A program made the translations under genes and the position numbers. The notes under the pieces were generated by a model. That model was not told the origin of the DNA, did no database searches, and saw only the letters and a program-made list of their open reading frames with translations. A DNA stretch of 64,000 nucleotides, taken from IMG/VR virus record IMGVR_UViG_3300026076_000002; one strand, given 5' to 3'. Of the stretch, positions 56,485 to 59,649 are shown in pieces (the first letter of the stretch is position 1; each line of letters starts with the position of its first letter). The stretch is from a virus.

Positions 56485-56783
56485 ATAAATTATTAGAGCA
56501 TCTGATCATCGCATACTCCTTTGATAGGAAGAAGGTTGAGCGTTTGCCTAATGAGATTGAGAACTTTTCCAGATTCTTTGTTGAATTTGGATCACCTATC
56601 TCAGAAGATAAGTATAAATATAATCAATATACTACGCTTGGACTAGCGTTTATTCGTCAACACCGCAACGAAATCTACAGAAGAATCCGTGAAGCAGTTC
56701 GATCAGTTCATAACAGAAGCAAGAATAACACGAGCTTCAACTCAGGCAAAACGCCTAGGTCTCGTAGGAGACGGGCATGGTGA
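56481..56783 (+). CDS. Hypothetical protein
   Basis: ATGA-coupled to the lipoprotein gene; 3' end overlaps the next gene. Confidence 0.5.
   Translation: MNKLLEHLIIAYSFDRKKVERLPNEIENFSRFFVEFGSPISEDKYKYNQYTTLGLAFIRQHRNEIYRRIREAVRSVHNRSKNNTSFNSGKTPRSRRRRAW
56613..56620 (+). promoter_or_regulatory. Late promoter TATAAATA
   Basis: Exact T4 late consensus about 70 nt before the 56689 gene. Confidence 0.6.
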
Positions 56784-57610: not shown

Positions 57611-58600
57611 ATGGGAATCTGGAATCAGACATTTGATGATCTACGTAAGCCTTACTTAGAAGGTAAAGATCAGGAAAAGAAATCTAAAGGCAAACGCTGG
57701 CAAGATGATGACGGTGATGGTAAGTGGTACGAAAAAAGTGATGTAGATGGTAAGATTAGTAAACGTGAGAAGGAAGAGAAAAAAAAGAATGAAGCGTATA
57801 CTGTTACTAACGCTGACAAAAAAGGTAACACTAAAGCATACCAAGGATTTGTTGCAGGTATGAAGAGTAAGGTGACAGGTAAGCCAATGTATAAGGCTGC
57901 TGATCATATGAAGACTGAGCATCATTCAAAGGACTGTGACGATACTTGTGAACCAAAGTGTGAGCATGACCAAGAAGTAAAGGAAGATGTTGAATCGATA
58001 GATGAAATAAGTAAGAAGACTTTGGGTAGTTATGTAAAGAAGGCAAGTAAAGAAACCAAAGGAAACTGGGTGGCAACACAGCATGGATCTGGTATACCTA
58101 AGAAAGCAAGAGATATAAAACAAAGGCAGATCAGTAAAAGACTGAAGGGTATGGAGAAGGCAGGTGAGAAGTTGGCGAAAGAAGATGTTGAATTGATAGA
58201 TGAAAGAGGACGTGATGACAGTACTACTCTAGGTGATAGAGCACTAAGTAAAGCAAAGCGTCTAGGTCAGAAGAGGAGAAATTCTAAAGAATATAAGTCA
58301 GGATTGAGACGTGGTACTGGTGCAAAGGAGTATGATAACTACAAACTAGCAAGAAAGCAGCATAGTAATGATGCATCAAGTGAGAATCAGATGAGTAGAT
58401 CTAAACCTCAACGTGGTGAAGGTAACAAAGCAAAGAGAAGAGCAGGTCAAAAGGTGAGAAACACTAGAAACGATAGAGTAGTTAGTACACGTGACGGATT
58501 TAAGGTAGTACGGGGTGAGCATCTTGATTGGAGATCTGATCTAGGTTACATTACAGAAAAATCTGATTGTGACAGTGGAGATAAGAAAGCAAAAAAGTAA
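57611..58600 (+). CDS. Basic modular protein (putative internal head protein), 329-aa zero-frame product
   Basis: Lys/Arg-rich modules separated by xxE motifs; ends GCA AAA AAG TAA. Confidence 0.7.
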   Translation: MGIWNQTFDDLRKPYLEGKDQEKKSKGKRWQDDDGDGKWYEKSDVDGKISKREKEEKKKNEAYTVTNADKKGNTKAYQGFVAGMKSKVTGKPMYKAADHMKTEHHSKDCDDTCEPKCEHDQEVKEDVESIDEISKKTLGSYVKKASKETKGNWVATQHGSGIPKKARDIKQRQISKRLKGMEKAGEKLAKEDVELIDERGRDDSTTLGDRALSKAKRLGQKRRNSKEYKSGLRRGTGAKEYDNYKLARKQHSNDASSENQMSRSKPQRGEGNKAKRRAGQKVRNTRNDRVVSTRDGFKVVRGEHLDWRSDLGYITEKSDCDSGDKKAKK

Positions 58601-58634
58601 AAAAGGGAAAGCACAAGTTTGTAACTGTTTTCCC
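58577..58634 (+). promoter_or_regulatory. Programmed -1 ribosomal frameshift signal
   Basis: GGAG (58577-80), 10 nt, in-frame A_AAA_AAG (58591-97), 7 nt, hairpin GGGAAAGCA/TGTTTTCCC (58605-58634); the -1 frame is open to 59649. Confidence 0.75.
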
Positions 58635-59649
58635 AGACGTTAAAACTGAAGAAACGCTACTGGATAAACGTGCCAAAGCAAATGAGAAAGCACGTAAGTG
58701 GTTAAAGAAGGATGCTAAAGACAGTGGTTACACTGACTTAGCATTAAAAGCATCTATGTCTAAGGGTGCTGGTGTATCTGAAGCAAAGGTGGAGAAGAAC
58801 CGTTCAGATTTCGGTAAAGCATCAGTAAGAAACAAGCGTAAGTATGGTACAGAAGGTGAACCACTTGTAGGTAAGGCAGCAATCTTCCGTCAGAAAGGTG
58901 ACAGAGGTGATTTGATTGATCAAAGAAGAGCAGAGCACAAAGCAAAACGTGGTGTTAAGACTAAGGGTGTATCTGAGGCAAAGGTAGATACAGGTAAGTC
59001 ACCTGAAGGAAAGGAAGCTGCTAGGAACAAACGTAAGTTTGGTACAAGTCACAATCAAGCAAAGACTGGTGCATTAAGAAGGTCTCTTCATAAGATAAGA
59101 CGTGGAGACAAGAAGATAAAAGGTGAAAAACCTTACTATGGTGACGGTGGGTATGCAGCAGAAGGAAAGGAAAAGGGTTTAGACGGTAAAGCATGTTGGA
59201 AAGGGTACAGTCAACGTGGTACTAAGCAGAAAGGTGGTAAGACTGTAGACAACTGTGTAAAAAATGAAGGTGCAATACTTGACATAGTAAAGAAGGGATT
59301 AGGTAAGCACAAGGATGCTATCCAGAAGAGGAGGGTTGCTGCTAGAAAGGCAACTCCTTATGCTGCTATGGCTCAATCATATGAACCACAAGGTAATATG
59401 ATTCCTGAAGAAGGTTATGATAGGATGAGAGATGACAGACTTGTGAAGTATGGTATAGGACATGATGGTTCTGACCGTAGGAGTACCCCAAAAAGACGTA
59501 CACCTGACAACCAAAAGGTTAAAGGTAAGACAGTATTACAGAAACAAGCAGAGAAGAAGTATGGTAAGGGTGCTAGTGCTCTTGACATAGTAAAAGCAAA
59601 GATCAAAGCTAAGCATGGTGATGGTGCTATAATGGATAAGAAGAAATGA
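58597..59649 (+). CDS. -1-frame continuation of the 57611 gene (contains ORF-track 58756-59649); basic modular protein
   Basis: No stop from 58585 to 59646: VKKGKHKFVTVFPDVKTEETLLDKRAKANEKARKWLKKDAKDSGYTDLALKASMSKGAG...; no clear SD before ATG 58756. Confidence 0.7.
   Translation, partial: VKKGKHKFVTVFPDVKTEETLLDKRAKANEKARKWLKKDAKDSGYTDLALKASMSKGAGVSEAKVEKNRSDFGKASVRNKRKYGTEGEPLVGKAAIFRQKGDRGDLIDQRRAEHKAKRGVKTKGVSEAKVDTGKSPEGKEAARNKRKFGTSHNQAKTGALRRSLHKIRRGDKKIKGEKPYYGDGGYAAEGKEKGLDGKACWKGYSQRGTKQKGGKTVDNCVKNEGAILDIVKKGLGKHKDAIQKRRVAARKATPYAAMAQSYEPQGNMIPEEGYDRMRDDRLVKYGIGHDGSDRRSTPKRRTPDNQKVKGKTVLQKQAEKKYGKGASALDIVKAKIKAKHGDGAIMDKKK

Follow-up and report, generated by a model that had tools for sequence, protein, structure and literature searches.

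Introduction

In dnaX of E. coli, the gene for tau and gamma, ribosomes shift into the −1 frame at the heptamer A_AAA_AAG, which is flanked by an SD-like element 10 nt upstream and a stem-loop 6–7 nt downstream. The shifted ribosome stops almost at once and thereby releases the shorter of two products that are made from one gene in a fixed ratio. Slippage in E. coli is favored by the lone tRNA-Lys, which carries a UUU anticodon. The orfA and orfB frames of IS3-family elements such as IS911 and IS150 are fused through slippage as well, with an SD-like stimulator on the 5′ side and a structured one on the 3′ side. Among phages, the late genes 10A/10B of T7 and G/GT of lambda each produce a short form and a C-terminally extended form at a set ratio by −1 slippage.

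T4-like cyanophages rank among the ocean's most abundant viruses; two of them, S-PM2 and Syn1, serve as model systems. Here we describe a locus in a 64,000-nt stretch of viral DNA (IMG/VR virus record IMGVR_UViG_3300026076_000002; hereafter, the window) that belongs to a T4-like cyanomyovirus, with genes for DNA polymerase, UvsX, gp41 helicase, MazG, and a DNA methyltransferase located upstream. The polymerase gene is 98.8% identical to that of a virus in the single-cell genome AG-345-D19 and about 72% identical to that of the nearest cultured phage among those listed. A reading of the window made from its letters only, referred to below as the sequence-only reading, had proposed that a dnaX-type −1 frameshift joins two hypothetical ORFs, giving a short form of 329 amino acids and a long form of about 679. 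Sequence comparison supports this proposal. The same reading knew of no frameshift described for this gene class, and literature searches agree; searches of open-access papers and bioRxiv preprints returned nothing relevant on frameshifting in cyanophages or cyanomyoviruses or on the corresponding S-PM2 and Syn1 gene names.

The locus shares with dnaX the identical heptamer, the sequence AAAGC that precedes it, an SD-like element 10 nt upstream, and a downstream stem-loop. It differs in that the shift doubles the length of the product instead of shortening it, the hairpin is weaker, and the proteins are unrelated. As in the IS3 family, A_AAA_AAG lies near the end of the upstream ORF and the overlapping −1 ORF lacks an efficient start of its own. 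The gene, however, is not a mobile-element transposase, the two frames overlap by 13 nt only, and the zero-frame stop abuts the heptamer in most members of the cyanophage family. The heptamers and proteins of T7 10A/10B and lambda G/GT are different from those found here, and in contrast to these cases the extension in the window is as long as the protein itself.

Results

Anatomy of the junction

ORF1 (57611–58600, plus strand) encodes a basic, modular protein of 329 amino acids in the zero frame, which would constitute the short product. Its final codons are GCA AAA AAG TAA, and the sequence-only reading had noted that they place A_AAA_AAG in the correct phase for slippage. We confirmed this heptamer at 58591–58597 (plus strand), where it stands in the X_XXY_YYZ phase of ORF1 and would allow tandem −1 slippage of two tRNA-Lys. 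The heptamer is invariant in all relatives; the codon that precedes it is GCA or GTA and thus ends in A either way. The zero-frame stop codon, TAA at 58598–58600 (plus strand), abuts the heptamer. It is changed to CAA in some relatives, in which a zero-frame stop follows 8 codons later.

The −1 frame had likewise been described as open from 58585 onward across a 155-nt intergenic gap, and we found it uninterrupted as far as a stop at 59647–59649. Upstream, the frame is closed by a TAA at 58582–58584 (plus strand), which marks the 5′ limit of the stretch in which a shift is possible. The continuation in the −1 frame (58597–59649, plus strand) comprises 350 codons plus the stop, and together with the 329 residues of ORF1 gives a predicted long product of 679 amino acids. 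ORF1 and the −1 frame overlap only at 58585–58597, 13 nt that contain the heptamer. The last −1 stop and the end of the overlap together dictate that the shift must fall within 58585–58597, heptamer included.

The second gene had been called from an ATG at 58756–58758 (plus strand). No ATG, GTG, or TTG precedes this codon in the open −1 frame, and neither a promoter-like nor a terminator-like site was found in the so-called gap (58601–58755, plus strand). In-phase A_AAA_AAG is not rare as such, with six copies present in genes of the 64-kb window, whose genome is Lys-rich and AT-rich. Another in-phase copy (57781–57787) is internal to ORF1, and a slip there would lead to termination within a few codons.

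The gap as coding sequence

Translated in the −1 frame, the gap yields the first half of a module found at 65–85% protein identity in other cyanomyoviruses. Elsewhere this module is found inside ORFs of 469 and 1116 amino acids or after a start codon of its own. The ATG at 58756 splits the conserved module and corresponds to a Met within it. Locus L132 lacks that Met, its earliest −1-frame ATG lies 174 nt from the heptamer rather than 165 nt, and the frame is still open.

A comparison of the window with locus L121, both of which carry the frame change, revealed 8 synonymous differences and 1 non-synonymous difference in the −1 frame of the gap (pS 0.24, pN 0.008; Fisher p=1.3e-5), corresponding to a dN/dS of about 0.03. 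Read in either of the other two frames, the same differences are almost solely non-synonymous. Third positions account for 9 of the 12 variable columns in the gap (p=0.004). The genes are mosaic, and some of the synonymous differences could be recombination imports from phages that read the module in frame. Together, these comparisons indicate that the gap encodes protein in the −1 frame and is subject to purifying selection, which bears out the earlier remark that it contains protein-like sequence. No start codon can serve the gap, and it must therefore be reached from ORF1 within 58585–58597.

AlphaFold2, run on the −1 part as a single sequence, predicted isolated helices amid disordered linkers (pLDDT 54, pTM 0.18). 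The most confident of these helices (residues 18–42 of the −1 part) is encoded by the gap.

Independent assemblies of the junction

About 13 independent contigs, drawn from a single-cell genome, IMG/VR, metagenome and ENA assemblies, and one Logan assembly, retain an identical A6-G-N-A6 layout, the change of frame, and the stem; these carriers of the exact cassette form a narrow clade with 93–99% protein identity. Whole modules are inserted or deleted among them (ORF1, 265–381 amino acids; −1 ORF, 283–469 amino acids), and the gap contains neither a stop nor an indel in any of them. A search pattern that tolerated 12–20 nt between the flanks matched the 15-nt version only, and no in-frame allele was found. 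All 7 clusters of ORF1 proteins stop at one common position. Longer homologues, with the ORF1 C-terminus fused to further sequence, were searched for and none was returned, which is weak evidence. The sequence-only reading had called for an alignment of homologous loci and named a continuous ORF in homologues as the sign of an assembly error. The homologous loci preserve the AAAAAAG, the open −1 frame, and a hairpin, and in no relative does an A-run of another length turn the locus into a single uninterrupted ORF.

The variants (window 57611–59649, L001, L121, L132, L137, and L140) differ by whole modules of 30–120 residues, with breakpoints that in nearly all cases come after a Glu residue (for example, ..GVSE, ..VIPE, ..AAE, and ..CNE). 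Such Glu-linked breakpoints fit recombination at repeated linkers and are possibly cleavage sites for a T4-type prohead protease. The −1 ORF of L140 (4179–5237) carries an extra module with a precomputed match to Pfam DUF6321, which the window copy does not have. Five assemblies (L085, L086, L089, L094, and L100) break 140–290 nt downstream of the cassette. Repeated and shuffled modules that confuse assemblers likely explain these breaks, in which case contig collections under-represent the long form.

Candidate stimulators in the window and its close relatives

Two further elements named in the sequence-only reading, a GGAG 10 nt upstream of the heptamer and a 9-bp stem 7 nt downstream, were confirmed at 58577–58580 and 58605–58634 (both plus strand). 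The stem is formed by GGGAAAGCA (58605–58613) and TGTTTTCCC (58626–58634), which make 9 pairs, one of them G-U, and enclose a 12-nt loop; RNAfold assigned the hairpin −11 kcal/mol. In the window and its close relatives (lineage A), all 9 positions are paired in every sequence. Eight pairs are invariant, and the ninth changes from G-U to A-U. Compensatory changes were looked for in the lineage-A stem and none was found. Compared with shuffled sequences, the lineage-A hairpin folds only modestly better, with z scores of −1.3 and −2.6 in two runs. With a single G-U to A-U change on offer, the lineage-A stem is unproven by itself.

The GGAG, a possible 5′ stimulator, is retained as GGAG or AGGAG in all lineage-A relatives. 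These bases also encode Gly-Asp, and their conservation may thus be protein-level. A second AAAAAAG (58599–58605, plus strand) begins one base after the first, stands in slippery phase for the −1 frame, and abuts the hairpin; it is invariant in lineage A and absent from sister lineages. It could allow ribosomes to slip once more, into a frame with a stop about 14 codons on, or it could act as a back-up site, possibly by a P-site slip, in relatives with CAA in place of TAA.

A cmscan of 58450–58800 against Rfam (E up to 10) gave no match to the frameshift elements of dnaX or of insertion-sequence families and returned a chance snoRNA match only. The site would function as these elements do, but its sequence does not belong to their families.

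Sister sites across cyanomyoviruses

We scanned the fetched loci, then cultured isolates, and then viral contigs by pattern for similar junctions. Across 81 of the fetched loci, 45 distinct junction sequences combine an in-phase A_AAA_AAG with a −1 ORF of 32–405 codons, and every one of the 45 has the heptamer in canonical codon phase. Under a shorter key the 45 collapse to 37, of which 32 have the stop directly after the heptamer. When about 100 related loci were surveyed on both strands for a long ORF that lacks a start and overlaps another long ORF, all 14 cases proved to be −1 junctions at A_AAA_AAG; none was a +1 junction and none lacked the heptamer. The combination of heptamer, overlap, and start-less frame is therefore specific, though the heptamer alone is not rare.

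Six cultured phages carry such a site: S-PM2 (p145/p146; L003:4285-4578), Syn1 (Syn1_163/164; L144:1852-1956), S-RIM32 (171/172; L142:2784-3077), S-H9-2 (L145:1821-2048), S-CAM3 (180/181; L147:2179-2310), and Sf-FP1 (L146:1717-1840). In these phages the post-shift peptide is conserved and the annotated start is GTG, ATG, or none. Annotations list the −1 extension as a very small gene of its own or, in Sf-FP1, omit it. Alignment of gene order with S-PM2 revealed that ORF1 and the −1 ORF fill the p145/p146 slot, between a GC534-like gene and GC424. By these comparisons, the same predicted architecture is present at a positionally equivalent gene pair across cyanomyoviruses.

The sister sites resemble that of the window in their genomic slot, in the heptamer with its following stop, in the first post-shift residues (Val-Lys), in a two-Cys CWKGY module, and, for most, in a hairpin 3–8 nt downstream. 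They differ in that another module junction is used, the extensions measure 32–95 amino acids compared with 350 in the window, the hairpin sequences are unrelated, and the S-PM2-like group has GGAGG 7–8 nt upstream. The A-run also differs, with A7 in the S-PM2-like lineage versus A6 in the window. The junction thus falls at different module boundaries in different lineages. Heptamer-plus-stop combinations at further boundaries were observed in L022–L025 (heptamer at 1028, 2998, 2998, and 2956), L026–L029 (2749, 2746, 2746, and 2746), L148, L160, L167, and L184. These boundaries lie before the two-Cys CWKGY module or a Cys-x-Cys-Asp-Asp motif, and each has a hairpin of its own 3–6 nt downstream.

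A hairpin that starts 3–8 nt after the heptamer is present at 39 of 41 junctions as opposed to 4 of 36 internal in-phase heptamers, and the mean folding energies are −13.3 and −6.1 kcal/mol, respectively (p=8e-11), in sets that are phylogenetically non-independent and differ in G+C (0.46 for junctions vs 0.37 for controls). Covariation of the hairpin, which the sequence-only reading had proposed to test in homologues, was seen in the S-CAM3-like lineage, for which RNAalifold predicted 14 pairs, 3 with compensatory changes. In a wider alignment that included S-PM2-like sequences, the covariation score exceeded that of all 500 shuffles. The predicted hairpins of the sister lineages support the shared architecture, not the particular stem of the window. 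GGAG or GAGG occurs 6–14 nt upstream of 25 of the 37 junctions compared with 8 of 37 controls, a difference that is confounded with coding; GGAG is missing in one sister lineage and stands at 7–8 nt in another.

Predicted protein products and genomic context

Both parts of the predicted fusion are basic, with pI values of 9.6 for ORF1 and 10.2 for the −1 part, and consist of short modules in which Lys plus Arg make up 25–27% of residues. ORF1 has one module in common with ORF89 of phage S-SCSM1 (E 5e-16), a virion protein that was detected by mass spectrometry and is labeled as such in GenBank. Neither ORF1 nor the −1 part matched Pfam, PHROGs returned solely families of unknown function, and a feature search of the ESM Atlas gave nothing above chance level. 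The ORF1 C-terminus resembled the beginning of the L009 homologue as long as composition was left uncorrected, and this resemblance was lost when the correction was applied. The product is probably a basic, modular, virion-associated protein. Our best guess is that it is possibly packaged in the capsid, with the ratio of short to long forms set by the slip.

A T4-type late-promoter-like motif, TATAAATA (56613–56620, plus strand), lies upstream of the preceding gene and probably marks where the transcript of ORF1 and the −1 ORF begins. The 64-kb window contains no tRNA genes. The cytidylyltransferase-like protein that precedes ORF1 begins (M)KQFDQFITEA (window 56689–56720), and its relatives begin MKSFSQFLSEA and MKKFSSFLAEA (L011:164-200 and L020:183-220). 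This N-terminus is similar to the sequence that targets T4 internal proteins to the capsid. The virions of cyanophages have been found to contain NMNAT-like proteins (PMC9602691).

Discussion

We consider it likely, from the comparisons described above, that ORF1 and the frame that follows it constitute one recoded gene, expressed through a programmed −1 ribosomal frameshift of the dnaX/IS3 type into products of 329 and 679 amino acids. According to this model, most ribosomes would halt at the TAA at 58598 and release the 329-residue protein. In a fraction of ribosomes, the tRNA-Lys on AAA and AAG would slip back by one base at A_AAA_AAG (58591–58597), during a pause that is probably imposed by the hairpin 7 nt downstream, with the GGAG 10 nt upstream perhaps helping. 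The slipped ribosomes would then read the −1 frame to 59649 and complete a protein of 679 residues that has the same N-terminal half and about 350 additional residues of basic modules. We infer that the slip is ribosomal rather than transcriptional, and the role of the GGAG likewise. Initiation at the ATG at 58756 may take place in addition to frameshifting.

Three other explanations can be set against this model. Loss of one A from an in-phase A7 creates the same heptamer, and its position alone thus cannot separate a programme from a mutation: GCA AAA AAA GTA minus one A is exactly the present sequence. On this basis, the locus could consist of two genes, an ancestral gene having been split by an old one-base deletion in the A-run, with translation restarting at the ATG at 58756 and the gap persisting as an untranslated remnant. 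Such an ATG exists, SD sequences are often missing from marine cyanophage genes, and some cyanomyoviruses (locus L020) have the module at the start of a separate protein that possesses an ATG itself. A remnant, however, would hardly have kept a −1-frame dN/dS of about 0.03 and remained free of stops and indels in about 13 contigs. A start at 58756 would cut a conserved module, and L132 is open without that Met. Moreover, the same phase, −1 direction, and hairpin distance recur at three or more other positions in the family, and random indels would not produce such junctions. Neither decay downstream nor in-frame alleles in close relatives, by which a pseudogene would be recognized, were found. 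We judge a split gene to be improbable. An error of sequencing or assembly in the A-run, with one continuous ORF as the real gene, has a negligible probability. Homopolymers are error-prone on some platforms, but the same run lengths recur in about 13 contigs across projects, samples, and assemblers, and the length-tolerant pattern uncovered no in-frame variant; an assembly error is thereby excluded.

In the third explanation, the fusion would arise by transcriptional slippage. RNA polymerase would drop or add an A in the A6 run and thereby bring part of the mRNAs into phase. Homopolymeric A runs can cause bacterial RNA polymerase to slip, and the run extends to A7 in the S-PM2-like lineage. 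Since it would yield an identical protein, the comparative data are compatible with slippage of this kind. Nonetheless, efficient transcriptional slippage occurs at A/T runs of about 9 or more, a length that neither A6 nor A7 reaches. It also has no need for the canonical phase kept at 45 junctions, for an adjacent stop, or for a hairpin 3–8 nt downstream. We find this mechanism quite improbable and favor the programmed ribosomal frameshift.

A bolder model concerns the family as a whole. The cassette of heptamer, stop, and hairpin might be a conserved, portable junction in capsid-packaged modular polyproteins of cyanomyoviruses. Modules would be shuffled around the cassette, the slip would set the number of copies of distal cargo modules per virion, and the prohead protease would cut at Glu-ending linkers, much as in T4 internal proteins. 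We put this model forward tentatively and consider it rather doubtful in its entirety.

The predicted frameshift would correct the gene models of S-PM2, Syn1, and four other cultured isolates, in which the locus appears as two unrelated hypothetical genes or with its second part unannotated. It predicts a 679-residue protein and peptides from the gap that can be searched for directly by proteomics. The junctions provide a natural series, at least 45 of them distinct and with several unrelated hairpins, for slippage at A_AAA_AAG in cyanobacterial ribosomes. To this series the window adds a lineage whose extension makes the protein twice as long, together with a link between sites that are placed differently. 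The finding also offers a way into a large and rapidly evolving family of basic proteins associated with virions.
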